A DNA stretch of 64,000 bases from a virus (IMGVR_UViG_3300002220_000519:21407-85406); one strand, 5' to 3'; shown: positions 1-13,380, numbered from the stretch's first letter. Notes: generated by a model from the letters alone, not told the origin. Numbers and translations are program-made.

Positions 1-318
1 ATGTTGGCGCCATATACCGTCTGATGAGAGAGCATAGCCAGTGATGATAGCAAGACTCCTTTTGTTCTTAACCCATAAATGTGCAGAGTTAGAGTGACAA
101 GAGCATGGAAGTCCTTTTCTACGGAGAGCTCTTTTCTCTTTGAATAGCTCTCCTCGTTTTAGTAGGTTAATTAATTCCTCCTCGTATACAGGTGCAATAG
201 CTACTCCTTTTATCTTAAGGAGTAGTGTGTATAGGGTTTCAAGCAGTGGTTGTGTTCTGATAGCCCGTGCCTTTTGTGTTTCTAGGAACAGGGCTTGATC
301 ATAAGGTAGCTTTTTCAT
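1..318 (-). CDS. Hypothetical protein, truncated by the window edge (MKKLPYDQALFLETQK...CHSNSAHLW...)
   Basis: ATG at 318 directly follows the stop of the 320-526 gene; frame is open to base 1 (my translation). Confidence 0.5.
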   Translation of the reverse strand, partial: MKKLPYDQALFLETQKARAIRTQPLLETLYTLLLKIKGVAIAPVYEEELINLLKRGELFKEKRALRRKGLPCSCHSNSAHLWVKNKRSLAIITGYALSSDGIWRQH

Positions 319-319
319 A

Positions 320-526
320 TTAATCACAGTATTCATACATGTCGATGCAGTCATAATAGTCGTCTTCTGCTTCCCAGGCGCATTCATAAAGACGTTTACT
401 GCATCGTATTGGTAGTATGTTTTCGTATAGCCAGATAAGGTAGTTGGGGTCATCTCTTAGTATTTCCTGTGGTGTATGACCTTTATGCCTGCCAAATGTT
501 AGTGGGGTGTTGTCGATATCTGGCAT
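320..526 (-). CDS. Small protein with a DUF3820/ExoX-C-terminal-like motif
   Basis: LTFGRHKGHTPQEILRDDPNYLIWLYEN fits the FGK(H/Y)KG...P.YL.WL pattern. Confidence 0.6.
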   Translation of the reverse strand: MPDIDNTPLTFGRHKGHTPQEILRDDPNYLIWLYENILPIRCSKRLYECAWEAEDDYYDCIDMYEYCD

Positions 527-642
527 TGTTGTTCCTGTATATTTACGAGGGTTAGAGCTGTAGCTTTAGGCAGTTTAGGGCTGTTAGCTATTACCCTAAC
601 TAGCTTAAGCTGATTGTCATTAATCTCAATAATCATTACTAA

Positions 643-957
643 CTATGGTCTCTTCTTCTTATTGAACTTGATGTTATTAGTTACCCAAGGAGAGGTAGGT
701 ACTTTTGGTTTCTTGGTCTTTGCCTTAAGCTTTTTACCGCTCTTTATTACTTCAGATATGCTGCATGGCTTGAGCTTTAATGTCTGTTCTTTGCGCTGTA
801 TGCTTCTAAGTTCATATACCTTGCTAGCATCTACCGGTCTTCCAACCATACCAAAAGCGTATTCGTTGATGCTTAATAGATAGTTGCCATGTTTTATTAC
901 TTCGTCAGGTAGTAGTTTAACCCATGTCTTACCTTTAGGTGGTTTTGGTAGTGGCAT
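643..957 (-). CDS. Hypothetical basic protein
   Basis: 104-aa Lys-rich ORF in the minus-strand gene block. Confidence 0.5.
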   Translation of the reverse strand: MPLPKPPKGKTWVKLLPDEVIKHGNYLLSINEYAFGMVGRPVDASKVYELRSIQRKEQTLKLKPCSISEVIKSGKKLKAKTKKPKVPTSPWVTNNIKFNKKKRP

Positions 958-1167
958 CTTAGAACCTTATATTGTTTGTTACCCATTTAAGTATAGCTTC
1001 ATCACCAGCACCTGTACCAATAGGACGTAATCTATGAACAAGGTCTTCTTCTAGTGCACGAAGCCCAACCCATATCTTTTTCTCTCAGTTTTACGCTAGG
1101 GTTTAGTATGCCTGGGTGTGCTGCCTCTGGTCTAATTTGTCCTCTATTCCCATGTCCTAATCGTTCT

Positions 1168-1383
1168 CTACGTCTTGCTCCCCTCGATCTTATTGCTGTC
1201 GTTTAGCTGTGCTATTACTTCTTTGTTGTACTGTTTCATAGTGCTATTATTGGTTTCAGCATTATGTTTTGGTGTATTCCAATAGGGAGATTTGCAACTT
1301 GGACACAGTATAGTCTTATCTTTGCGAGGAAACCAAGTCCAGTTGCAACGACAACAGGTTTTACTTATTCTTTCCTTTTTCAT
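1168..1383 (-). CDS. Zn-ribbon protein (paralogue of 17298-17576)
   Basis: CCRCNWTWFPRKDKTILCPSCKSPYWN; two CxxC pairs. Confidence 0.65.
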   Translation of the reverse strand: MKKERISKTCCRCNWTWFPRKDKTILCPSCKSPYWNTPKHNAETNNSTMKQYNKEVIAQLNDSNKIEGSKT

Positions 1384-1619
1384 GGTATAATTAACCTATA
1401 GAAGTAAGTTTAAGGAGGTTGTACCAGGTGAAACGCATTGAATTCTTGTTTTTTGTAATTTTCCTGCGGCAAAACTGTAGGAGAGCCACAGAAACGGCCC
1501 AGACCCCATAGCAGGACCTTGAAAACTGATGCAGAGGCTGGAGAAGACCGAGGTTATTGACCTACGCCAGCCTATTATGTTGTTTCTATGTATTCAGCGC
1601 CTGTGACTCTCTTATAGCT

Positions 1620-1814
1620 TTACGTCTGTTTTGGCTTCTTGTGCCTTGTTTTGTCTTGGGTGTATGTACTCTTTCTCCTGGTTTTCGCTTCCATTTCACC
1701 CTTGGCAAATCTGGGAGCTTCTTCTTTTTCATTGAGTTCACATAGATGAGATAAGTTTAACTTCCGGAGGTTACAATCCTCCTTTTCATGACAGGTGGCA
1801 CAGGACTGGCTCAT
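1620..1814 (-). CDS. Small Cys-containing basic protein
   Basis: MSQSCATCHEKEDCNL...; ATG at 1814 overlaps the TGA of the upstream small ORF. Confidence 0.55.
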   Translation of the reverse strand: MSQSCATCHEKEDCNLRKLNLSHLCELNEKEEAPRFAKGEMEAKTRRKSTYTQDKTRHKKPKQT

Positions 1815-1915
1815 TTTGTCTTGTTCCTTGTTAAAAAGTATATCACTATGAATACCAGGATGAGTAAGACCCATTCAGCTGCACCAGACATTGACCATAA
1901 CCAGTGTAAAAACAC
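1811..1915 (-). CDS. 34-aa single-pass membrane peptide
   Basis: RBS AAAGGAG, GTG start; MFLHWLWSMSGAAEWVLLILVFIVIYFLTRNKTK. Confidence 0.5.
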   Translation of the reverse strand: MFLHWLWSMSGAAEWVLLILVFIVIYFLTRNKTK

Positions 1916-1942
1916 GGTTTTATCTCCTTTTGATGTATAATT

Positions 1943-2160
1943 CCCGTAACCTTGCGGTTACGGGCTAGGGTGCCACGTACCTGTAGGCCAGACCGACGGA
2001 ACCGCGGACCTACCTTGGGGGCCCCTGCTCCCCAAGGGGTAATTGCCTACGCCATAAACATTCTAGGTGACCCAACACCTAGTTCCGTTCCCTTGCGGGC
2101 CTACCAAACCAGGAGATGGTCTAGTAGGATTCAGCCGTGGCTTCGAGACACCGGAATGAT
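1943..2160 (-). ncRNA. Candidate structured non-coding RNA (unassigned)
   Basis: GC-rich intergenic region with at least six complementary helices and two GCAA tetraloops on the minus strand; no credible ORF. Confidence 0.55.
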
Positions 2161-2199
2161 GTCTAATTTTATATATGTAAGTTCCTTATCGCAAAGAAC

Positions 2200-2535
2200 T
2201 TAGGTTAAAACAGTTTGAACTGTATGATCAAAGGTCAGAGCATTCTTACAGTAGCTGAAGATCTCTTTTCTCCATAGAATAATAGAGACTACAGCGCTAC
2301 CGACAGAGCCAATCATAAATGAGTATAGACCGGCTCCAGCTAATAGAATGACAATAGCGGATAACGAGACGTCCATTAGGAACCTTCTCGTCTCTTCGGC
2401 TAGTGGTACAAAAGATTTAGCTGATCTCTTATGCGCAAAGCCTAAGAACGCTGCCATTATATTAGCGAGCTCTTTAAAGTAGAAGAAGACATTAATTAGT
2501 AATGCTGCTACTCCCAATAATATCATAGATATCAT
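2200..2535 (-). CDS. Membrane protein
   Basis: 111 aa with about three hydrophobic segments; RBS GGAGG upstream. Confidence 0.6.
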   Translation of the reverse strand: MISMILLGVAALLINVFFYFKELANIMAAFLGFAHKRSAKSFVPLAEETRRFLMDVSLSAIVILLAGAGLYSFMIGSVGSAVVSIILWRKEIFSYCKNALTFDHTVQTVLT

Positions 2536-2540
2536 AGTTT

Positions 2541-2981
2541 TTAACCTCCTTTCTGCGATTTACTCAGCCTATCTAGGACAGATTGGCTGTTCTCCTTATG
2601 CATTCCGGTAATCTTATGGGTATCCCAATTATCTACCTCGCACCGACAAACTGAACACCAGTTATTAGGACAACGCCCTTCGGTGTGTAAGTCTAAAGAT
2701 GCGTGGCACTTTGGACAATCGTCGTTTTCTTCTTCTGTGGCGGTGCCCCCCGCTTGCGCGGGGCCCCCCGCCCCATACCCGAAGTGAAAGAATTGTCTTA
2801 GTATGTATATTAGCAGGACCACCTTGAGTGGGACGAGTATAACATTGATCAATAGTACTCGTCCCACTGTTATAGGTTCACCCCAAAGGTTGATGAAGGC
2901 TCCCCCAGTGTCTAACGCAACGAATATGAGTGTACCTATGATGATTTCTACTGCCAATACTGAAGCAATTAACTGCTTCAT
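2541..2981 (-). CDS. Membrane protein with C-terminal Cys/His Zn-binding cluster
   Basis: Two hydrophobic helices followed by CPKCHASLDLHTEGRCPNNWCSVCRC. Confidence 0.6.
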   Translation of the reverse strand: MKQLIASVLAVEIIIGTLIFVALDTGGAFINLWGEPITVGRVLLINVILVPLKVVLLIYILRQFFHFGYGAGGPAQAGGTATEEENDDCPKCHASLDLHTEGRCPNNWCSVCRCEVDNWDTHKITGMHKENSQSVLDRLSKSQKGG

Positions 2982-3187
2982 TTTGCGGGCTGCATGCTGG
3001 GTTCGGGGTATGCCAGCCTATCATGCTGTTTCTCCAGGCGGGCTATACCTTTGTCGCAGGCTGTCTTGACCTTGTTGGCGCTGTCACGGACTGCGACCGC
3101 TGATACCTTGCCCAACTGAACGACAGCCAGGCCGGTGTACATTAAGGCCACTTTTCCCAGTGTGGCCAATTTTTTGGTCTCGGACAT
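2978..3187 (-). CDS. Small amphipathic helical protein (family with 3237-3545 and 6960-7286)
   Basis: RBS AAGGGAG; hydrophobic stretch followed by ANKVKTA. Confidence 0.65.
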   Translation of the reverse strand: MSETKKLATLGKVALMYTGLAVVQLGKVSAVAVRDSANKVKTACDKGIARLEKQHDRLAYPEPSMQPAK

Positions 3188-3236
3188 GATGGTCTCCCTT
3201 ATTAATGATCTGTTGATTATTTAAGTTAACCTGGGG

Positions 3237-3545
3237 TTAGGCTACGGCCGGGACGGGCTCTGGTTTCTTGAACGGGATCACATTGCCGAGCCTGGTCTTC
3301 AGGTCGGTTGCGATCTCCTTGGCGTCGGCGGCTAACTTCTTGTTGTCCAGTTTCTTCTCCGCCCTGATGCAGGCCTGGTTTAACTGCTCGGCTCTCTTCG
3401 CGACCTTGTTGGCGCCGTACCTGATGCCGATGAGGCCGATGCGAGCTGTGGCGTTCCCCATCAATATGGGGCCGACGATCGCGACGCTGGCGGAAATCCG
3501 GGCTGCGTCACGGAAGTCTTTGCTGGCTCTTTTCAGTTCTAACAT
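3237..3545 (-). CDS. Small amphipathic helical protein
   Basis: Start reassigned to ATG 3545 (RBS AAGGAG); contains ANKVAKRA. Confidence 0.65.
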   Translation of the reverse strand: MLELKRASKDFRDAARISASVAIVGPILMGNATARIGLIGIRYGANKVAKRAEQLNQACIRAEKKLDNKKLAADAKEIATDLKTRLGNVIPFKKPEPVPAVA

Positions 3546-3694
3546 CTGAGTAATCTCCTTGTTTTGTTCAATTTTTGTGGGTTTTCTCTTGTTTTTGGTG
3601 AATTTTTGAGAGGAGTGGTTCACCCCGAACCACCCCTCTTCTGGTTGTTGCGTAGGCACTTTGTTGCGACTCCTACGCTAGTCCCGGTAGGACA

Positions 3695-4015
3695 CTACTT
3701 GCCCTTGGCCTCTTCGAGCGGAACTTCCTGGGAGCTGGTGCCCACGGCTACGCCATTGATCTTGACTGAGTAGCGGGTGACCACGAATTTCCCTTCCAGT
3801 TCGAAAGTGGCGTCCTTCAGGGCTCCGGAGTTGACTGCCTTCCGGATGTTGCCGGCGAGGTTCCGATCCTGGAAGCTGAGAGGGTGGTTGGTCTCGGTGT
3901 TGTCCTTGGCGACCGAGACGGCTCTGAAGAAGCGGGGCTGGCCATCGCTTTGGGCGATACCGCTCAGCGGATCGGGGCGCAGGGATACCTGGAAACTGGT
4001 TTTCTGACCGTCCAT
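3695..4015 (-). CDS. RNAP-A-linked small beta-rich protein (paralogue of 7774-8112)
   Basis: RBS AAGGAGG; DPLSGIAQSDGQPRFFRA motif; directly downstream of RNAP-A. Confidence 0.75.
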   Translation of the reverse strand: MDGQKTSFQVSLRPDPLSGIAQSDGQPRFFRAVSVAKDNTETNHPLSFQDRNLAGNIRKAVNSGALKDATFELEGKFVVTRYSVKINGVAVGTSSQEVPLEEAKGK

Positions 4016-4034
4016 CGTATTATCCTCCTTTCTT

Positions 4035-6476
4035 CTAGGATTCCTGATTCATATGATCAGGTTTGTTTTCCAAGACAAGAGAGCATTCGGCAGGGGGAAG
4101 GACTGCGGGCAAGGGAGCGCTTAGATTATGCGCTAAGTAGTCGGACATACGCTCTATGGCTCCTGTGCAGGCGTAATGCCGAACGAGGCCCGGCAGGTTG
4201 TCTAAGGCCGTTCCGCCATATACCCTGTTCGCGAGTTCTCCCGGTCCGAGTGGTGCGATCAGTGTGAACAGGAAGTCGCTCATCTTGGATGTAGCTATGA
4301 CCTGTCCAAATCTCACTGCCACGGACACTCGATCTGTTACCGGTAGAGCGCGTACTTTAGCCGCAGCTTCGTAGACTGCTGTGAAGCTTGGCTTGCTTGG
4401 TTGGCGGCCGGTTAGGGCGTCCCCAGCTGCGTATGCAACTGCGTCTCGGAATGCGTCCATGAGGCCCTTGGCGATATCTTCTGTTACTGTGCTAAAGGCC
4501 ATCACGGGTTCTGCCATGATCTTTTGTGCGAAGCCGGCTCTGTCGAATGGTTGCTGCTCGACTATCTCGAAAGCGGGCAAGTTTCCGAGTAGGTTGTGCA
4601 CCCATCCAGTTAAGCATAGATCCCATGTCTTATCCGTATGGGAGACGTGTGATTTCCAGGTTGCGTCTATGCTGCTGTAGTGCTTTACTCGGGCGTTCCA
4701 GTCGAGTGCTGCCCGGCCCATTTCCTTGTGTAACCATGGCATTGTGGTTGGGAACCCCAGCGTCTTTAAATACCCTCTGACGCTACGCATGATACTTCTT
4801 GCGTCGAAGTCCCCGTTCTTGGTTGCCTGTATCGACATGTGGTAGGATTGGGCAAGGATATCTTCTGCATATGACAAGTCTACCCCTGTGCACTGAACGA
4901 TACAGCGTATAAGAGATAGCATGTTGCAGATGGTGCCGACTGATGCGCCACTGGCTTGTGTCTTGTAGGCATCTTCGTAGGCTGTGGTTACTACCCTGCC
5001 AGTTCCTTTGGTCATATCGAGGTGAGGCTTAGGTGAGGTTTTGAGTTTGAAATTGTAGATGAATATAGTGTCACCGTCGAAATCCCCGTTATGGAACTCT
5101 TTCCAGTCTTCGGGGTTAACGTAGGCCGCGTGATCTGGGGCGGTATTTGTTCTGAATGTGTAGTGAACCTTGTACTGCCTGATCTCCGACTTCTGATTGA
5201 TAGGGTACCGCACTACTGTGACGGTCTGGGGGCGACCAAATGCATTCCAGGCTTTGCGGGATAAGATGATGTCACCTCTCCTGCATTTGGCAGACGGAAG
5301 AGCCAGCGCGGTGTGGCCCTTCTCTGTGTAGAATCCTTTTCTTAATTGATTGGCATACCAATGGGCTGCCTGCCAGGTTGCTCTCTGACAGGTTGGGTGT
5401 GTATCGGCTGTGGCCCCGGCTGCGAATAAGAATTCAGCCTGCATACGAAGCTCACGATTAAGTCCGTCTTCGGTAGGGATGTTACCTGGTAATAGGTCGA
5501 ATGCATCGTGCACTTTTAGGATCTTTTGCATTGCGTAGCTGTCACCGAGGATAGCATCTTGTAAGTCCGTAACTAGAGGCACGAGTTCGGCTTCAACTAC
5601 TTCTCTCCAGTTGTCGCACAGGCCAAGCAGTTGATAGGAGAGATTACATCCTATGCGATAGAACCAGTCTGAAACAGAAACCAGGCGGAATTCGGAAATC
5701 TTGAAGGTGTGCTTGCCTGGCTTGCGTGGTTCTCCCTTGTCGTTGCCGTTCCAGTATAACAGCTCTCCTGGTTCATCGGTGTTGGGGTCAAGGTAGAAGA
5801 CTACCTTGCTTGAGTGTGGCCATATACCTGAAAGCTTGATGGCCGTGGGTAAATGGATAACTTGTCCTTCCTCGTTGATCATCTTGTCGAGATTATAGGC
5901 TGCTACCATATTGGCCATAATCTTCTTGCTTACGCGCATACAGCCGTCGAGACTCGGGTGTTCTTCGTCTGTAACGACTACATCGAATGCATACTCTGAT
6001 TGTGGTAATATGGCTGGTTGGTGAGAAACTCCGGCGGCTTTGGCATTTGACCATGGCACTTTGACTTGATCGTTGATGCCTACCAATAGTTTCCAGTCCA
6101 AGGCCATTTGCTTGGGGGTTGGTAGGATAACAGCGTTTGGGCCAACCTGTTTGTGGATCTGGTCCATTACATCTGTTGGCGTGTCGTTGTTGATCGGGGC
6201 TGGAACTTCATACCACCAGGAAACTTCAGGTTCGCCATTTGTATAGTTGAGCAGGCCGTTTGCGCCTCTCGTGTACCCGCTGTTCTTTCTGAGTACTGTG
6301 ACTACCTTAATTGTCTCCGAATGTTTAATTACATAGTCACGGACCCAAGAATCCCGTACACCCTTGATTTTTGCACGCTTATTTGAGTCTGGGTCGTTGA
6401 GCAGCACCAGAGGATCTTCTTCCCAAACCAAGTAGTTTGGGCTATCCTGTGTAGCCATAGGGATCTTCAGTCCCAT
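4035..6476 (-). CDS. Single-subunit two-barrel RNA polymerase A (YonO/QDE-1-like), 813 aa
   Basis: Ordered motifs LDGC, SKVVF, NDKG, NLSYQLL, TVTVVRYP, HNGDFDGD (5070-5090), VGTICN, MSIQATK; RBS AAAGGAG. Confidence 0.85.
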   Translation of the reverse strand: MGLKIPMATQDSPNYLVWEEDPLVLLNDPDSNKRAKIKGVRDSWVRDYVIKHSETIKVVTVLRKNSGYTRGANGLLNYTNGEPEVSWWYEVPAPINNDTPTDVMDQIHKQVGPNAVILPTPKQMALDWKLLVGINDQVKVPWSNAKAAGVSHQPAILPQSEYAFDVVVTDEEHPSLDGCMRVSKKIMANMVAAYNLDKMINEEGQVIHLPTAIKLSGIWPHSSKVVFYLDPNTDEPGELLYWNGNDKGEPRKPGKHTFKISEFRLVSVSDWFYRIGCNLSYQLLGLCDNWREVVEAELVPLVTDLQDAILGDSYAMQKILKVHDAFDLLPGNIPTEDGLNRELRMQAEFLFAAGATADTHPTCQRATWQAAHWYANQLRKGFYTEKGHTALALPSAKCRRGDIILSRKAWNAFGRPQTVTVVRYPINQKSEIRQYKVHYTFRTNTAPDHAAYVNPEDWKEFHNGDFDGDTIFIYNFKLKTSPKPHLDMTKGTGRVVTTAYEDAYKTQASGASVGTICNMLSLIRCIVQCTGVDLSYAEDILAQSYHMSIQATKNGDFDARSIMRSVRGYLKTLGFPTTMPWLHKEMGRAALDWNARVKHYSSIDATWKSHVSHTDKTWDLCLTGWVHNLLGNLPAFEIVEQQPFDRAGFAQKIMAEPVMAFSTVTEDIAKGLMDAFRDAVAYAAGDALTGRQPSKPSFTAVYEAAAKVRALPVTDRVSVAVRFGQVIATSKMSDFLFTLIAPLGPGELANRVYGGTALDNLPGLVRHYACTGAIERMSDYLAHNLSAPLPAVLPPAECSLVLENKPDHMNQES

Positions 6477-6548
6477 CGTTCACGCTCCTTTCACTAGTTG
6501 AATTAACGGTAAGATTCCTGCCAAAACAGGGAGAGAATTTGGCGAGGG

Positions 6549-6830
6549 TTATCGATCACTCGCAAGCTTCTCTGCTGCGTTAAGCTCCCTGTCCGCAGAT
6601 ATCTTCATCTGTTCTGCGTTACGGCCTGCTTCCCTGATGATGGTGGAGAGCGCGAACTCTAGGTGCTTGTAGGTGCCGACCTTCTGCCTGAGCCCGGCTA
6701 TGGTTGTTTCCTTGACTGCGACCTCGTTGGTTAGCAGTTTGTTGTCCTGTTCTAAAGCTGTGGTCTGCTCGGTAAGTTCGGCTATCTTCTTTTCGAGTTC
6801 CCTAATTCTGCGAAATGGATTTAACTTCAT
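6549..6830 (-). CDS. Coiled-coil protein
   Basis: Heptad pattern IRELEKKIAELTEQTTALEQDNKLL; RBS AAGGAGG. Confidence 0.65.
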   Translation of the reverse strand: MKLNPFRRIRELEKKIAELTEQTTALEQDNKLLTNEVAVKETTIAGLRQKVGTYKHLEFALSTIIREAGRNAEQMKISADRELNAAEKLASDR

Positions 6831-6959
6831 GTTTGTTCACCTCCTTTGCATAGTACTGGCGCTCCTTGCCTTCTAAGAAGCGGTTAACGTTTTGGGCTAG
6901 TTTCTGCCCGAAGTGTCCTGCGATGAGTGCGACTGCCATGCCGAACTTCATGCCGTTGT

Positions 6960-7286
6960 CTACGACGGCTTTTCCGGAGACGGCGGCACGGGCGGCTTGG
7001 AGTTGGAGTTCTGTTTGGGAGAGCACGGTTCCTCCTTTCCCTTGAGTTCGTCCATGGCCTGGTCTAAGGCCTGGTCTGCGGTTAAGTTTCCTTCTGCTTT
7101 GAGTTCGAGTGTGCGGTTGACCACTTGGTAGGTTAACTTGCCGGCCTCTATCTCGTTGTCTATCTTCTCCTTAGCACGCTTAGCTATTTTGGTTGCGCTC
7201 TTGGCTGCTTCGTCTCCGAGCCTTCCGAACACAGCGCCTATTGTGATGATGCCGGCTGCGATTTTCCGTTTGGTAGTGTCTTCCAT
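6960..7286 (-). CDS. Small amphipathic helical protein
   Basis: RBS AAGGAGG; KIAAGIITIGAVFG...TKIAKRA. Confidence 0.65.
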   Translation of the reverse strand: MEDTTKRKIAAGIITIGAVFGRLGDEAAKSATKIAKRAKEKIDNEIEAGKLTYQVVNRTLELKAEGNLTADQALDQAMDELKGKEEPCSPKQNSNSKPPVPPSPEKPS

Positions 7287-7728
7287 GACTGATCACCTCC
7301 TTTTAAATGGTTGTGTGGCCTTGTTCGATGCAGGGAGTTTGCGTCTTTCATTCCTTTCTCCTTATATTAATGGTTTAGTTGATTGCGAACGGCGCCAGCT
7401 TATTCACCCATGGCTTTACGCCTTTAAGTGGGAGTGGTGGGGCTGGCTACCAGGACGGTCAGTCACCACGACCGACACGGGCCTGGGCTGTTCAATCTCA
7501 CACCTGTGGAACCAGACCCTATATATGAATGTAAGTGTTTGCACCGCCCTCAATTAAGAGGACGGCGGAAAGGTTGCCAGGCCTAGCTTCGCTGTTGGGA
7601 AAAGGACAGCGCAAGCGTAGTTTTTACAACTACCCGGGTTGCAGGCAGTTAACCACGCGGGGAAGGCAACAGATTACTACCACCACAAGGGATATATGTT
7701 ATTGACACACATATCCTATATGAATTTT

Positions 7729-7765
7729 AAAAGACCGAAGGGAGCGTTAACTCCCCTCAGTCTTT
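7729..7765 (-). terminator. Intrinsic terminator after the RNAP-B partner gene
   Basis: AAAGACTGAGGGGAG-TTAACG-CTCCCTTCGGTCTTTT on the minus strand. Confidence 0.7.
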
Positions 7766-7773
7766 ATGAATGA

Positions 7774-8112
7774 TTATTCAGGCACGCAGGTGGCAGTCCC
7801 CCGACCCAGCACCAAATCCTGGCCGATATCGAAGACCTCGCGGACCTCGATGGCTTTCCTGGTGATCGGGATGGTGACGGTCTCACCCTTGGCCGACGCA
7901 GCGATCAGCTTGTCCCTGAGCTGGCCACCGATGGACTTGGCAGCGAAGCTGATGTGCAACCGGCGACCGTCCGGGAGCGTGGCCTGGAACAGGTAGGGCC
8001 GACCGTCTTTGAAGTTGATGCCGCTCATGGGATCGAAGGACAGAACGGCGTTTACGGACGCTTCGGCCAGCACCTGGGCGCCAGCCTGGAACTTCTTGGT
8101 GAAGTTGCTCAT
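7774..8112 (-). CDS. RNAP-B-linked small beta-rich protein (paralogue of 3695-4015)
   Basis: Start reassigned to ATG 8112 (RBS AGGAG); DPMSGINFKDGRPYLFQA motif. Confidence 0.75.
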   Translation of the reverse strand: MSNFTKKFQAGAQVLAEASVNAVLSFDPMSGINFKDGRPYLFQATLPDGRRLHISFAAKSIGGQLRDKLIAASAKGETVTIPITRKAIEVREVFDIGQDLVLGRGTATCVPE

Positions 8113-8351
8113 GGTAAGGTCTCCTAATAGAAGTTTAAAAGTTGACATACGCTCTGAGTGAGCTATGCCAAAACAAGTGAGTATTCGGCTAGGCTAGAGA
8201 CTTCGGCTAGGATAGACTGCAGGCTGGGGGGCCGGCAATCCTCTCCCTACGCATACGAGTTTAAATAGCTAGTGTATGACTACCTGGTTATAACCTAGTT
8301 GCGTTTAGTCTTCTAAATATGAGCGCCTGTCACGTTTGTTTTGTGTTGTTG

Positions 8352-10634
8352 TTACTTTTTGAATATGTTGTTAGCCAGAATGAACTGGTCAGGATAGGCC
8401 TCGACCAACTTCTCTGGGGTTAGTGTGTTGCAGGCTAAGCGTGCTAATCCCACGTGCCGCCAATCCATGAATGACCACATCTTTAATGTGTTACTCTTGG
8501 CCAGCTTGTAGCCCCACCTAAAGACGAGTTGCAAGTATACTTCGGGAGTAATGGTTACTTGTGTTAAGCCTGTAGCAACGCAGATTAGTCTATGGGTTTT
8601 GTGGTCTCTGGTCCACTTGCCAGGTACCCAGAATCTCCCGCCCTTACGTGCTGCTGCCTGTAGCCTGCGGAACTTGGAGAATGCCTTAGTGTTGTCGTGG
8701 TTCTCGAGTAGGTTCTGAGCAGCCTGACCAAAGATAGTATTGAAGAACTCGAATACTAGCTCTGCATCCTGATTGGGGGCCTTCAGGTACACACTATAGA
8801 AGCTCTTCGCCAGTATTGAGCGGGCCTGGTCTGTAATGCTTGGTATAGTTGGTAGGGCGGCAATCTTCTTCAACATATTGGTGCGCACGAAGTTGTCCCA
8901 CTCTTTACCAAGGTTAGCCATAGTCTTAGTCTCTGTTACCCTGGTGTTCCACGCCTCAAGGATGTTGTTCTTGGATACCTGCCACTTCTTTTGTCTCCAG
9001 AAGCAGCCTCTGATGTTGAAGTTCTTGCGCGCGTAGTCCCTAATGTCTCTAACGACATCATCACCACCTATGTCCATATGCTTGATGGCCTGGATGGACA
9101 TATTATAGGCGACCCCTGCGTTATTGATTAGCCCCTTAAGGTCAGCACGGTCAAAGGCCGTTTCTAACCCTATAGCTAGTTCCTGAGCTAAACACACACG
9201 CCCGATCTCCTTATATGCAGCCCGTGTTTCTAAGAACTCCTCATAAGGAGTGAGTGCCTCTTTGGCACCCTTCGCTATGGTTGGCATGGTCATCGTACCA
9301 AAATCCTTGGGCTTTAACGGCAGGTTAATGACAAAGATCAGATCCTTGTCAAAGTCCCCGTTATGATTGGTGCGCCATGAGTCAGGGTTAATACTTACTG
9401 TGTGCCAGCTAACCACCTTGTACTCAACTATTTCCTTCGGGCCATTGAGCGGGTAACGGACAACCCATACAGTGGCCGGGTTCCCCATTTTACGCTGGAC
9501 ATCAAGTGGCAGCCCTATTTCGTTGGGCTTTATAACGCGTGACGGTAGGGCTATCTCCATGAGTCCTACGTTCTTCGGCAGTGGAACCCCGCGAGATAGA
9601 TCTCTGGTTCTGATGCCCAGCAGTGTGACTGTGAAGTTGGCAAGTTCAGGTGAGAGCAACGGATTGCCGCCATTTTCGATGGCAAAGCGGGACATGGTCA
9701 GCCGATCCGCCCAGCGCGGGTTGACGAATGTATCGACTTCTGGATCGTAGTTTTCGTCGAACATAAACGTCTCACCGAGATCTATCAAGTCAAGTATGTC
9801 TGGTTGGATGTGTTCCATGTAATACTCCTGAATCTCCTCGGTCGTCCTGCCCGCTGGTACACCTGTTGACAGATAGTTTGCAACTGCTGTAATTTTGGTC
9901 ATCCAGGGCGCACCAAAGCGCTCGATAAGTTGTGTTCCATTTACTAGCAGCTGTGTTACCATGTGAGACAACCAGATACGATTAGTAGAGTAGTCATCAC
10001 CGAGTGCTACTAGCCTGAGGTCTCTGATGTCAAAGGTGATTGTACCCTGACGTTTGACACCCTTGTCGTTGCCCTTGAATGTAATTATGCTGCCCTCTAA
10101 GCCACGCTTGAAGACTATCTTTGTGCAGTTGGGCCAGATACCAGCAAACCCAGCAGCGTCTATGTTGCCTATTCTGTTCTGTGACACACCATACGCCTCC
10201 AAGATCTTGTCGAACAGGCCCTTTGGGATTGTGGTACAGCCGTCCTCGGCCCCTTCTTGCACGGTGTCTACTATCTCGGCGTCGAACTTGATTGGTACCT
10301 GGGTTGCGCGGCCAGGTTGTTGACTGACAGCTAAGGCTTTGCTACTGTCAATTGGGGCCTCTAGCGTTGGGTTCTTGGTAACCCAGACCAGCCCGGCCTT
10401 CATATCCGTCTTGCTCGTCCTCAGGAATCGTTCGCCTGGTTCCAAGACGCTCTCAGCTACATCCAGCGACACCTCAGTATGGTATTTGCTAATCTCTATA
10501 CCAACAGGTGTGTGGAAGAGCTCTTGTCCAGTTATACGTTCCCTAGTCACATGGTTAGCAACCAACCAGGCTGCCACGTGGCTGTTGACCGCGCCGAAGG
10601 GCTCAGTCTTGCGAGAGATATTAGTGTAGTTCAT
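8352..10634 (-). CDS. Single-subunit two-barrel RNA polymerase B (YonO/QDE-1-like), about 760 aa, DFDKD variant
   Basis: Motifs EDGC, TKIVF, NDKG, WLSHMVTQLL, TVWVVRYP, HNGDFDKD (9342-9362), MSIQAIK; probable start ATG 10634 (RBS AAAGGA); ORF is open to 10709. Confidence 0.8.
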   Translation of the reverse strand: MNYTNISRKTEPFGAVNSHVAAWLVANHVTRERITGQELFHTPVGIEISKYHTEVSLDVAESVLEPGERFLRTSKTDMKAGLVWVTKNPTLEAPIDSSKALAVSQQPGRATQVPIKFDAEIVDTVQEGAEDGCTTIPKGLFDKILEAYGVSQNRIGNIDAAGFAGIWPNCTKIVFKRGLEGSIITFKGNDKGVKRQGTITFDIRDLRLVALGDDYSTNRIWLSHMVTQLLVNGTQLIERFGAPWMTKITAVANYLSTGVPAGRTTEEIQEYYMEHIQPDILDLIDLGETFMFDENYDPEVDTFVNPRWADRLTMSRFAIENGGNPLLSPELANFTVTLLGIRTRDLSRGVPLPKNVGLMEIALPSRVIKPNEIGLPLDVQRKMGNPATVWVVRYPLNGPKEIVEYKVVSWHTVSINPDSWRTNHNGDFDKDLIFVINLPLKPKDFGTMTMPTIAKGAKEALTPYEEFLETRAAYKEIGRVCLAQELAIGLETAFDRADLKGLINNAGVAYNMSIQAIKHMDIGGDDVVRDIRDYARKNFNIRGCFWRQKKWQVSKNNILEAWNTRVTETKTMANLGKEWDNFVRTNMLKKIAALPTIPSITDQARSILAKSFYSVYLKAPNQDAELVFEFFNTIFGQAAQNLLENHDNTKAFSKFRRLQAAARKGGRFWVPGKWTRDHKTHRLICVATGLTQVTITPEVYLQLVFRWGYKLAKSNTLKMWSFMDWRHVGLARLACNTLTPEKLVEAYPDQFILANNIFKK

Positions 10635-10684
10635 TGGGTTCCTTTCGATTTGTTTGAAATTGTTTGTTTGAAGTTTAGATCTCT

Positions 10685-11068
10685 TTAGATCTCTTCTGCC
10701 GGATTCCAACCGTCTATGTTGAAATCCGGGGTGGTCATTGGTGCATCCAGTGTAGCCTCAGCCGTGCCGAGATAGCAGCACAATACCGAGTGCTGTATTT
10801 CGAACGCGGCCGGCCTATTGATGATGAGCCAGAAGGGCTCATACACACCAGCGGCTACCTGTCTATCGGCTGGTCTTAGGAACAGTCCATTCTGTCCATT
10901 GAGCAGTCGGCCGCCCTTCACGGCAAAGACGTTGTTAAAGGTCAGGTCTATTACGGCGACCTGTTTACCGATTGGTGTAGGCAGCCTTGTAATGGCCACC
11001 TCGGTCAACACTAGCCCCACTGGGAGACTAGTGATGGCCTTGCTTAGTCTGTGGATTTCTTTAGGCAT
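10685..11068 (-). CDS. spoVG: SpoVG-like nucleic-acid-binding protein
   Basis: LTEVAITRL...AVIDLTFNNVFAVKGGRLLNGQNGLFL...EIQHSVLCCY follows the SpoVG pattern, including GQNGLF; RBS AAGGAG. Confidence 0.7.
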   Translation of the reverse strand: MPKEIHRLSKAITSLPVGLVLTEVAITRLPTPIGKQVAVIDLTFNNVFAVKGGRLLNGQNGLFLRPADRQVAAGVYEPFWLIINRPAAFEIQHSVLCCYLGTAEATLDAPMTTPDFNIDGWNPAEEI

Positions 11069-11372
11069 GACCTTCTCCTTCAAAGATGTTTAATTGTTGT
11101 AATTTTTGTGGCTCCTGTCTGCTTCCTCCTGGTTTCCAGCCGGGTCGTGTTCTTCTTAGCACCATGGCCTTCTCCCAACTTGTGAGACCCCTAATGGAGA
11201 GCAGTTGGTAGTTCAGCCACGTTCCGTTCAACCACATCCCGTTCATCACTATGACCTTGTTTGTGACGTGGTTGACACTGACTTTGAAACTATAAGCGTC
11301 CCCCACCCTCTTGACTGCCCAGAACGACTCTATAGCCTCAAGTAGCAGGTGCCGGTATTCTATGACTGCCAT
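11061..11372 (-). CDS. Hypothetical protein
   Basis: Start reassigned to ATG 11372 (RBS GAGGAGG). Confidence 0.55.
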   Translation of the reverse strand: MAVIEYRHLLLEAIESFWAVKRVGDAYSFKVSVNHVTNKVIVMNGMWLNGTWLNYQLLSIRGLTSWEKAMVLRRTRPGWKPGGSRQEPQKLQQLNIFEGEGHA

Positions 11373-11566
11373 GATCTTATCCTCCTCATAAGTTTCTTCC
11401 AGTAGTATGGTATAATCACCACAATTAATGATAGTCCCACTATGGCGACAATTGATGCTAAAATGAGGTACCAACCTAGCCTACCAGCTGCGTTCGAATC
11501 GGTTGCGGCCAGAAAAGCACCGACCAAGAACGTGCAGAAAGCTCCGAGGGCCATGTTCTTATCCAT
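11360..11566 (-). CDS. Two-helix membrane protein
   Basis: Hydrophobic segments, basic C-terminal tail, RBS AGGAG. Confidence 0.55.
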   Translation of the reverse strand: MDKNMALGAFCTFLVGAFLAATDSNAAGRLGWYLILASIVAIVGLSLIVVIIPYYWKKLMRRIRSWQS

Positions 11567-11831
11567 TTATCTCTCCTTCTCTTTCTTTTAGGGCCAAGTC
11601 GACGACCCTGTTAATTACTGGGTTGAATATGCATGTACTGTTACTGTTGCAGCTCAGTTGATGATAGCACCCAGCACAGACCTTTTCTGCGTGGGTCTTG
11701 GCATCCTCAACCCACCCTATTCTTATCATGTTGTCCACTATTCTGGTTTGTGTTTGCAGCCACCTCACTCTCCTCATGGTAGCGGCTGTCACTCTCCTGG
11801 CCTCCCAGGACCTTGTTTCGTTCTTTGCCAT
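11559..11831 (-). CDS. Hypothetical protein with Cys cluster (CAGC...CNSNSTC)
   Basis: RBS GGAGG; overlaps the next gene in an operon-like way. Confidence 0.55.
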   Translation of the reverse strand: MAKNETRSWEARRVTAATMRRVRWLQTQTRIVDNMIRIGWVEDAKTHAEKVCAGCYHQLSCNSNSTCIFNPVINRVVDLALKEREGEING

Positions 11832-11944
11832 TATAATACCCTCCTAATTAATTTGTTGTTGTGGCACATGACGAGCACCACAATGTTACCGATGATTGGA
11901 AGTTGGGTCATTGCCAGTATTGCCTTTTTCATGGTCAGTCCTTT

Positions 11945-12160
11945 CTATTTATTGGTTGTTGTAAGATGAGCGTAAGCCTCTGCCGCGAAGTCCCTGTTGT
12001 TATCTTCTTCTTTCTCCTGCAACTCGTAAATTATGTCAAGGAAGTCCTGCGCCATCCCGACGATCTTTGGCTCCGGGCAGTGGGCTACTATGTGTTGCAA
12101 ACCCATGATGCTCCAGCTCTCTATTGAGAACTCTAGAGTTTCCATCCATGTTGCCCTCAT
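11945..12160 (-). CDS. Hypothetical acidic protein
   Basis: RBS AAAGGAG. Confidence 0.55.
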   Translation of the reverse strand: MRATWMETLEFSIESWSIMGLQHIVAHCPEPKIVGMAQDFLDIIYELQEKEEDNNRDFAAEAYAHLTTTNK

Positions 12161-12172
12161 TGTGGCTCCTTT

Positions 12173-12505
12173 CTAATAAGCCTCGTGATCAATAACGATA
12201 TCGAGGCGGTTTACCTGAACTCCCGCGGTGGGAATCCAAGTGTTAATGTAGGCTACGAGGCTGTTGGCTTCCTTTAGGACCTTGTTACAGTCCTGAATCC
12301 CCTTGTTCAGCCTCTCTAGCTGGGAGGTGGACTCTGTGCCCGCTCTCACTGCAATGTAGTCCCTTCGGGTCTTCTTCACAGTGACTAGTAGTACGGTTGC
12401 CAGTGCAAGTATCCGATCCTTGGTGCCTTGGGGCATGGGTGTGTTTGTTTCCTTCCAGTCCCAGACAAAGGACTGTAGGAGGTTGAGTAGTAACCTGTGT
12501 TCCAT
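12173..12505 (-). CDS. Hypothetical helical protein (first gene of the left arm)
   Basis: Probable start ATG 12505 (RBS AAAGGGG). Confidence 0.55.
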   Translation of the reverse strand: MEHRLLLNLLQSFVWDWKETNTPMPQGTKDRILALATVLLVTVKKTRRDYIAVRAGTESTSQLERLNKGIQDCNKVLKEANSLVAYINTWIPTAGVQVNRLDIVIDHEAY

Positions 12506-12574
12506 GATAGTTCCCCTTTCTTTGTAGTTACCTTTGCGTCCCTGTTTTTCAACCCTTTTCTCGCTCAGGGTCAT

Positions 12575-13380
12575 TTATGAACAGGCTATACAGCTCATGC
12601 ATCGACTAGGTTATGCGATCCTGTCGAAGTTAATGGCTGGCTGTATTAAGCACGCCACATGCTTACTGTCATAGTCTACTAGGGAGACCAGCTTCTTATG
12701 ACAGTGTCGTTGCCCAGCGGTACTAGCAGCCATGTGTCAGTTAAGATAGTATGGGATATGGCCTACAGATTTAGTGGTCTATGGTTGTGTCATAGCCACT
12801 CGTGATAAGGCATATAGATTACAAGGCTATATACCTGAGCTACACCTGATTATAGCATTACCGTCTATGATCGTTGGGCGTTTATCTCCCTCTTTTAGGG
12901 GTAACATTCGCACCTACTAGACCATGATTTATAGTGAGAGAATAAGGCTCACTATTGTTCATCAGCCTTTGAGGTTGCTATGCTCTATGACTGACGACGG
13001 AGTTATTATTGCTAGACATTATTAGGGAGGTTGTTACTACCTTATGACCTCGAGATCCCTTGGTCCTCTCCTCCTAAGATACCCTAGAATGTCACTCATG
13101 TTGAGACTACATCTTTCAAGGACATGTCTTCCTTGATTGATACCCATATGGGCCTGGCATACTTAAATGCTCAGCTGCATTTTAGGGACACCCGGGGGGC
13201 TCGAAACCCTAGGTTAATTCCCTTATTATTCTACTATGGTCTCAGCAAATCATTTCGTTTTTCCGGAAAATCCCTATAGAATTTTCCAAAAATCCCGGCA
13301 GCAGTCCCCAAAAAACCCCCAAAGTAATTCCAAGATTTCACCATTCCCTATCAGCTTACTTAGGTAGTCATATACTGTAG
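12575..13380. other. Long non-coding divergence region; possible genome end, packaging site or origin
   Basis: No ORF of 60 aa or more on either strand; CCCGGGGGG at about 13191-13199 followed by phased A/T/C runs at 13256-13325. Confidence 0.45.

Follow-up and report, generated by a model that had tools for sequence, protein, structure and literature searches.

Duplicated RNA-polymerase-like genes and their small, candidate OB-like companions in a probable jumbo phage

Single-chain two-barrel RNA polymerases (RNAPs), e.g., YonO, gp66 of the crAss-like phages and the P23-45 enzymes, are minimal relatives of the cellular RNA polymerases, and Rpb7/RpoE, an accessory subunit containing an oligonucleotide/oligosaccharide-binding (OB) domain, binds nascent RNA on a two-barrel polymerase. 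How the single-chain enzymes recognise their promoters, and whether they need helpers, is an open question, the need of YonO for a phage factor being acknowledged as such (PMC5467207). Helpers have been described for the T7-like right-hand polymerases of phages N4 and LUZ7, where N4 gp2 and LUZ7 Drc (gp14), small orphan single-stranded DNA (ssDNA)-binding proteins, bind and recruit the phage RNAPII, and cofactors of this type are diverse in both sequence and fold (PMC7145618; review PMC4496689). Phage P23-45 encodes two diverged paralogous single-chain two-barrel RNAPs, gp96 and gp64, which stem from an ancient duplication and use different promoters (PMC10770324). Here we describe a 64,000-nucleotide (nt) stretch of viral DNA (IMGVR_UViG_3300002220_000519:21407-85406; the window hereafter) in which two paralogous genes for large RNA-polymerase-like proteins (RNAP-A and RNAP-B) are each followed by a gene for a small protein (small-A and small-B, respectively), and weigh the reading, which we favour only tentatively and partly by analogy, that a polymerase and an OB-like accessory factor form a module that has been duplicated as a whole.

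As judged from their sequences, small-A and small-B are real genes and true paralogs. Their products share 26% identity over 85 amino acids (aa; BLASTP E 2e-6), a Smith-Waterman alignment of the two scores 71, whereas shuffled sequences score 26.2 +/- 4.6 (z 9.8; 0 of 2000 shuffles as good), and profiles of the A-type and B-type proteins, which include relatives from other phages, align with an hhalign probability of 93.9% (E 1.5e-7). An earlier note on this DNA had proposed that the ~110-aa partner genes are paralogous and had named a non-significant profile alignment as the result that would count against this; the profile alignment is significant, as are both of the other comparisons. The motif DP(L/M)SGI-x3-DGxPxxFxA, which the note had read in both proteins, is indeed found in both, but the spacing within the second shared motif had to be corrected from x5 to x6 (SF-x6-G-x-(I/L)R). 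Each small gene is, as also stated there, the first one downstream of its large DFDGD/DFDKD protein, the gap being 19 nt between RNAP-A and small-A and 239 nt between RNAP-B and small-B. Exactly two polymerases and two small genes are present in the 85-kb record from which the window was taken, and small-A and small-B are the only paralogous pair among 15 early small open reading frames (ORFs) compared all-against-all; the retained duplicated unit thus consists of the polymerase and the small gene.

The large proteins, P0003 (RNAP-A) and P0004 (RNAP-B), are paralogs as well (27% identity over 471 residues, E 6e-37). A metal-binding motif of the DxDGD type reads NGDFDGD in P0003, NGDFDKD in P0004 and NADFDGD in P0014, an RNAP-B orthologue introduced below, with N, D, F, D and D being invariant in a four-sequence alignment, and GNDKG is conserved in P0003 and P0004. 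Neither protein has a match in Pfam, PHROGs or the PDB sequences. The ESM Atlas places P0003 next to PF05183 clusters (eukaryotic-type RNA-dependent RNA polymerase (RdRP)/QDE-1 class; feature score 0.96-0.97, template modelling (TM) score 0.54-0.61) and also near viral clusters that combine a similar body with helix-turn-helix or sigma-region-4 domains; the relatives in those viral clusters may have a DNA-binding module fused to them, which this phage lacks. The label “YonO-like”, under which the earlier note had filed the polymerases, is without sequence backing, as no similarity of P0003 or P0004 to YonO is detectable at the sequence level (hhalign 0.1%). Because of this and of the placement near PF05183, we regard P0003 and P0004 as single-chain two-barrel RNA-polymerase-like proteins of the RdRP/phage clade, and not as YonO family members proper. 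Searches of INPHARED for relatives gave no match by megablast or tblastn, scans of IMG/VR with P0003, P0004, P0006 and the alignments A2 and A4 found no relative, and scans of metagenomes and genomes with the RNAP alignment returned pattern matches only, none of which was confirmed.

The window belongs to an IMG/VR virus record of 85.4 kb. The same phage also turns up in several other samples and on an ENA contig of 211 kb, which makes it probably an uncultivated jumbo phage. From its first base to about base 12600, the window is occupied by a block of small minus-strand genes in which the GC content is raised, and its remainder holds plus-strand genes of structural size together with six tRNAs. 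The order along the minus strand is a SpoVG-like gene, RNAP-B, the 239-nt leader, small-B, two small ORFs, RNAP-A, the 19-nt gap and small-A. A second instance of this order was reached through RNAP-A, a search with which gave a single relative cluster (42% identity) on a 35.8-kb contig (L009) from the same sample as the 211-kb contig. Its layout matches that of the window: a SpoVG-like gene, an RNAP-B orthologue (P0014; E 1e-29 to RNAP-B vs. 5e-15 to RNAP-A), a small copy, an RNAP-A orthologue and a small-A orthologue. The last of these, P0012, lies 62 nt after the RNAP-A orthologue and is clearly orthologous to small-A (tblastn E 7e-12). The small copy behind the RNAP-B orthologue, P0016 (87 aa; L009:8407-8670, plus strand; AAAGGAG site), was exposed by tblastn; the gene callers had overlooked it in favour of a longer antisense ORF (193 aa, 8215-8796) that covers it, and it is found 418 nt after the polymerase gene, beyond a 70-aa ORF. 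The GC-rich small genes of this family may be under-called in protein databases, so that the family would look rarer than it is.

Altogether, searches of 1.84 billion protein representatives, IMG/VR and metagenomes led to five family members in three phages. Word-based searches with the small proteins returned only the queries themselves, and a HMMER profile search of the 1.84 billion representatives added one further protein, P0010 (107 aa, E 9e-12, 44% identical to small-B), the gene context of which is unreadable because its contig (L011) is only 915 bp long. All four members with a readable context sit just downstream of a polymerase paralog, and none was found away from a polymerase in any of the databases searched; homologues occurring independently of RNAP genes were the other outcome that the earlier note had set against its own reading. 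Pfam, NCBIfam and PHROGs gave no match at E <= 0.01 for any of the five proteins, the SSB, S1 and CSD families included, and the family profile retrieved nothing at E <= 10 from the PDB sequences. Several candidate relatives were discarded along the way. A degenerate DNA motif for DPxSG-x4-DGxPxxFxA had 0 matches in IMG/VR and 86 in metagenomes, all 86 being chance matches to the motif alone inside unrelated larger proteins, and the x3 variant had one IMG/VR match (L101), which runs antisense inside a 777-aa ORF and was taken as chance. P0011, a 1809-aa RHS protein retrieved with E 1.2e-6 via seven weak repeat matches, was dismissed since the repeats are CarboxypepD_reg domains (hhalign 0.2%), and the end of an ORF (29 aa) upstream of P0010 in L011 is similar to no polymerase.

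AlphaFold2 models, built from the five-sequence alignment only, have a predicted local distance difference test score of 86.9 for P0001 (small-A) and 79.5 for P0005 (small-B), and both run b1, b2, b3, helix, b4, b5, b6, i.e., in the OB-fold order of strands and helix. The weak match that ranks first for both models is the C-terminal OB domain of eIF5A, and the lists of weak matches consist mostly of OB domains (single-stranded DNA-binding proteins (SSBs), the DNA-ligase OB domain, EF-P, IF1A, K3L and the OB rings of PAN and Mpa); the best Z scores obtained with VIA were 3.7 for P0001 and 5.6 for P0005 (over 61 residues, root-mean-square deviation 2.8). A weak model from the ESM Atlas itself matches a ligase OB domain (TM 0.52). 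The OB-fold guess of the earlier note is therefore upheld as far as the order of the elements and the kind of the weak matches are concerned, but not by statistics, as no structural match is significant, and an OB-like barrel is to be seen as the probable, and not as an established, fold of the small proteins. The most conserved segment of the family, D-P-x-S-G...D-G-x-P-x-x-F-x-A, maps to the long b1-b2 loop and strand 2, which in the models would correspond to the usual ligand face of OB folds. The isoelectric point (pI) is about 9.1 in three of the five members.

Expression signals of the small genes are pronounced. The very GC-rich coding sequence and the strong ribosome-binding sites described in the earlier note are both there: the GC content is 0.60 for small-A and 0.61 for small-B, that at third codon positions (GC3) is 0.785 and 0.823, respectively, so that both rank within the top three of the window's real genes (RNAP genes, 0.55-0.59; structural genes, 0.30-0.40), and AAGGAGG and AGGAG, respectively, are found 8 nt before the ATG (Table 1). 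GC3 stays within 0.78-0.84 in all five members from the three phages, and C-ending codons are nearly exclusive in the family (ATC 100%, TTC 100%, ACC 77%), CAG (91%) being similarly preferred. This codon bias fits a predicted abundant protein, as had been claimed, and suggests high expression of the small genes; codon usage, the Shine-Dalgarno site and the position at the end of a transcription unit would together indicate that the small proteins are made at high levels early in infection. RNAP-A and small-A are apparently co-transcribed, and the hairpin that follows small-A probably marks the end of their common transcription unit. Strong hairpins stand behind four of the five small genes, and a U tract accompanies three of these hairpins; no comparable stem is found directly after the stop codon of P0016 in L009.

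The leader of small-B contains a conserved non-coding element, (GCG)TAGGGAGAG-N2-TTGC (core GCGTAGGGAGAG-N2-TTGC) followed by a G/C-rich stretch, which recurs ahead of the corresponding small gene at L011:321-335 and L009:8256-8270, i.e., once per genome in three phages. It may serve as a dedicated promoter or an operator, or act as a signal in a leader RNA, and its TAGGGAGA part resembles the initiation region of T7 promoters; a role as a general phage promoter was ruled out by its single occurrence per genome. Scans with sigma-70 promoter and terminator consensus sequences revealed no enrichment in 3000-12800.

Table 1. Coordinates of the polymerase-like genes, the small genes and their presumed expression signals in the window.
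Feature	Coordinates	Strand	Basis and remarks
Small-A gene (P0001, 106 aa)	3695..4015	-	ORF and translation; A-type member of the orphan family, predicted OB-like barrel
Small-B gene (P0005, 112 aa)	7774..8112	-	ORF and translation; B-type member
RNAP-A (P0003, 813 aa)	4035..6476	-	Translation; single-chain two-barrel RNA-polymerase-like, NGDFDGD and GNDKG motifs
RNAP-B (P0004, 760 aa from ATG at 10634)	8352..10634	-	NGDFDKD; open frame reaches 10709
Shine-Dalgarno sequence AAGGAGG	4024..4030	-	Read from sequence; 8 nt before small-A ATG, inside the 19-nt gap after the RNAP-A stop
Shine-Dalgarno sequence AGGAG(A)	8120..8125	-	Read from sequence; 8 nt before small-B ATG at 8112
GC-rich 13-bp hairpin after small-A, without U tract	3609..3639	-	Fold of -40.9 kcal/mol for a 96-nt stretch, z -4.3
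Intrinsic-terminator-like hairpin after small-B, 16-bp stem then UUUUAAAA	7722..7765	-	Fold of -26.5 kcal/mol, z -6.8
Conserved non-coding element GCGTAGGGAGAGGATTGC	8235..8252	-	In the 239-nt small-B leader; once in the 85-kb record

Of the start codons given in Table 1, that of RNAP-B is supported by its orthologue P0014, which aligns from the MNYTNIS start. A 124-aa reading of small-B beginning at 8148 was rejected, as it is without a ribosome-binding site and gene callers choose the 112-aa start on other contigs.

Taken together with the described systems, these observations suggest a reading in which a two-gene module, composed of a single-chain two-barrel RNA polymerase and a protein of ~100 aa, would have been duplicated in an ancestor of this phage clade, with both copies being kept. 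The small protein would be an OB-like barrel of five or six strands with a helix between strands 3 and 4, would bind single-stranded nucleic acid (melted promoter or non-template DNA, or nascent RNA), and would act as a paralog-specific accessory factor of the polymerase encoded upstream, be it in recruitment, activation or processivity. The link between polymerase and factor is drawn from gene order, the retention of both copies and analogy. What the earlier note had put forward as a duplicated cofactor stands as an observation of paired paralogs and, with respect to paralogy, predicted fold order, codon bias and context, partly also as an interpretation, without the YonO-like label. A more far-reaching version, in our estimate a rather unlikely one, is that a dedicated small subunit, specific to each paralog, is seen here for the first time with two-barrel single-chain RNA polymerases; the polymerase would either form a heterodimer with its own OB-like factor or be coated by it, the factor conferring promoter or template choice or RNA handling, and the duplicated pair defining two transcription classes.

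The analogy is closest with Drc, which is likewise an orphan of about 100 aa and a phage early/middle protein serving a phage polymerase, and the pI of which (9.16) is near that of three of the five members of the present family. Homology to gp2 or Drc was not detected, as neither the search of the PDB sequences (E <= 10; a crystal structure of Drc is published, PMC7145618) nor that of PHROGs gave a match. The fold of Drc is distinct from that of other SSBs (PMC7145618), whereas the small proteins described here are predicted to be OB-like; the polymerases differ too, those of N4 and LUZ7 being right-hand enzymes and P0003 and P0004 being of the two-barrel kind; and, unlike in N4 and LUZ7, the factor appears here to have been duplicated together with the enzyme. 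By this analogy, the small proteins are candidate binders of ssDNA and of the polymerase. With the OB-fold binders (bacterial and mitochondrial SSB, the eIF5A C-terminal domain, S1, cold-shock proteins and the S1 domain of Rpb7/RpoE), the models have the b1-b2-b3-helix-b4-b5 order in common, the weak structural matches being mostly of this class, but they lack a match to the Pfam SSB, S1 or CSD families and the usual aromatic/basic set, and have an extra sixth strand that forms a hairpin. In SPbeta (AF020713: 60834-63875), the first gene after yonO is yonN, which encodes a 92-aa HU/histone-like DNA-binding protein and is set apart from yonO by a stem-loop and ~240 nt. RNAP-B and small-B are arranged in the same way, although yonN is annotated as HU family and not as OB-type, and the proteins are unrelated. 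To our knowledge, yonN and yonO have not been reported to be functionally linked. The two enzymes of P23-45 are a parallel for a duplicated polymerase; one of them is fused to a tape measure protein, and neither is similar in sequence to P0003 or P0004.

As for the evolution of the pair, the RNAP tree separates both A-type from both B-type polymerases with a support of 100/100, and the polymerase duplication thus predates the split of the two phages. A-type orthologues are 42% identical in the polymerase and 33% in the small protein; B-type polymerases are 24% identical, and the small genes in the B position are barely alignable, so that the rates of the polymerases and the small genes might be called parallel in a loose sense.

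A number of points weigh against a polymerase-bound accessory factor. The tree of the small proteins resolves no more than P0005 and P0010 vs. the other three, and P0016, which is located behind RNAP-B, yet carries the A-type motif AQ-DGQPRFF; because of both, strict co-duplication is not demonstrated, and co-duplication, later gene conversion and unequal rates are each possible explanations of the sequences. With regard to the fold, Foldseek found no significant match (E > 0.09), the VIA Z scores of at most 5.6 are below the chance level usually quoted by VIA, and the feature search of the ESM Atlas points to LEA_2-like beta-sandwich clusters (0.92). D, S, G and P make up most of the invariant residues, which include just one F and one R and thus are not a typical aromatic/basic nucleic-acid-binding signature, and the pI is about 6.6 in two of the five members. 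The P23-45 study mentions no small partner protein or cofactor for gp64 and gp96 (PMC10770324). The conserved adjacency is seen in two phages only, and the whole early region is syntenic in these, with the SpoVG-like gene, a membrane protein after small-A and a 111-aa ORF also being conserved. With five members in three related phages and such a synteny, adjacency is weak evidence, and the linkage of polymerase and small gene may have been inherited and not selected.

The main rival explanation, which seems nearly as likely as a cofactor and which we hold possible without preferring it, builds on these very points. According to it, the small proteins are abundant early proteins with no relation to the polymerases, such as a general SSB or RNA chaperone for replication or recombination, a host-takeover protein or an anti-defence protein, and their adjacency reflects one segmental duplication followed by inherited order. 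As the early region is syntenic between both phages, the adjacency carries little information; small-B, with a separate 239-nt leader that holds a conserved element and with a terminator of its own, looks like an independent transcription unit; the 70-aa ORF separates the RNAP-B orthologue from the small gene in L009; and extreme codon bias fits a stoichiometric, abundant protein and not a 1:1 enzyme subunit, while the small-protein tree is without a resolved congruence to that of the polymerases. What speaks against an unrelated role is that the polymerase and the small gene are the only early genes kept as recognisable duplicates, that both copies are retained in both phages, that no member without a polymerase was found in any database searched, and that a mere 19 nt separate small-A from RNAP-A, with which it is apparently co-transcribed.

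Less plausible, and in our view improbable, is a role of the small proteins in repressing or switching their polymerases, as anti-polymerase factors that would set the time at which transcription passes between RNAP-B, RNAP-A and the host or sigma-directed polymerase, for instance by inserting the conserved acidic loop (D15...D24) into an enzyme channel. A long exposed loop does hold the invariant residues, which are acidic or turn-forming, the phage encodes a sigma-70-like protein further downstream, so that several transcription systems would need coordination, and the codon bias suggests an excess over the enzyme; on the other hand, it would be unusual for an operon to encode an inhibitor right behind its target enzyme, and OB-like folds are more often nucleic-acid binders. 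That the similarity or the ORFs are an artefact, with motifs shared by chance in GC-rich DNA that is not coding or with ORFs that are spurious, is effectively refuted. Long spurious ORFs do arise in GC-rich stretches, and the automatic caller chose an antisense ORF over one family member in L009, but the pairwise and profile statistics are significant, the five homologues from three phages show conserved residues and substitutions between similar residues, a Shine-Dalgarno sequence stands at the right distance in both window genes and in P0016, the AlphaFold models are confident from only five sequences, and GC is concentrated at the third codon positions of the proposed frame.

Some other features of this region deserve mention. 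The SpoVG-like gene directly upstream of RNAP-B (10685-11068, minus strand) is a weak one (PF04026, E 2.2e-5, below the Pfam cut-off), and its counterpart adjoins RNAP-B in L009 too (L009:5543-5815). SpoVG proteins bind nucleic acids, and this gene is another candidate for a transcription accessory. Directly after small-A, a 102-aa protein with a hydrophobic segment (P0017; 3237-3545, minus strand; GC3 0.796) is encoded, which is without a Pfam match and has a counterpart in the same position in L009 (P0018; L009:12977-13258). A duplicated cassette of three genes was considered and dismissed, as the membrane or helical ORFs that follow small-A and small-B (3237-3545 and 6960-7286, respectively) are only vaguely alike, without significance (BLASTP E 0.042 or none). 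Beyond the left end of the window, the 211-kb contig (L003) encodes, ~7 kb downstream of small-A and on the same strand, a 235-aa sigma-70-like protein with Sigma70_r2 and a weak r4 (L003:17578-18285), so that, besides the two single-chain polymerases, the phage may employ that of the host, directed by a phage-encoded sigma. The codon usage is strongly split, with GC3 of 0.5-0.8 in the minus-strand early genes (1-12600) vs. 0.30-0.40 in the plus-strand structural genes (13800-64000), and the same early/late gradient is seen in L009; the early genes may be tuned to the host tRNAs, and the late ones to the phage's own tRNA set, the six tRNAs in the window included.

Should the polymerase link prove false, what remains is a new orphan protein family with an unusual codon bias in an uncultivated jumbo phage. 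A small OB-like protein that has been duplicated and kept beside each polymerase paralog is, nevertheless, a concrete candidate for a helper and may be the first accessory factor of the single-chain two-barrel polymerase class; the four proteins are clonable and can be tested in vitro without the host. If the link holds true, the principle known from N4 gp2 and Drc, namely orphan single-strand-binding proteins as recruiters of a polymerase, would extend to an unrelated polymerase class, and if the small proteins are dedicated subunits, this would answer, for one clade, how YonO-class enzymes find their promoters without sigma.

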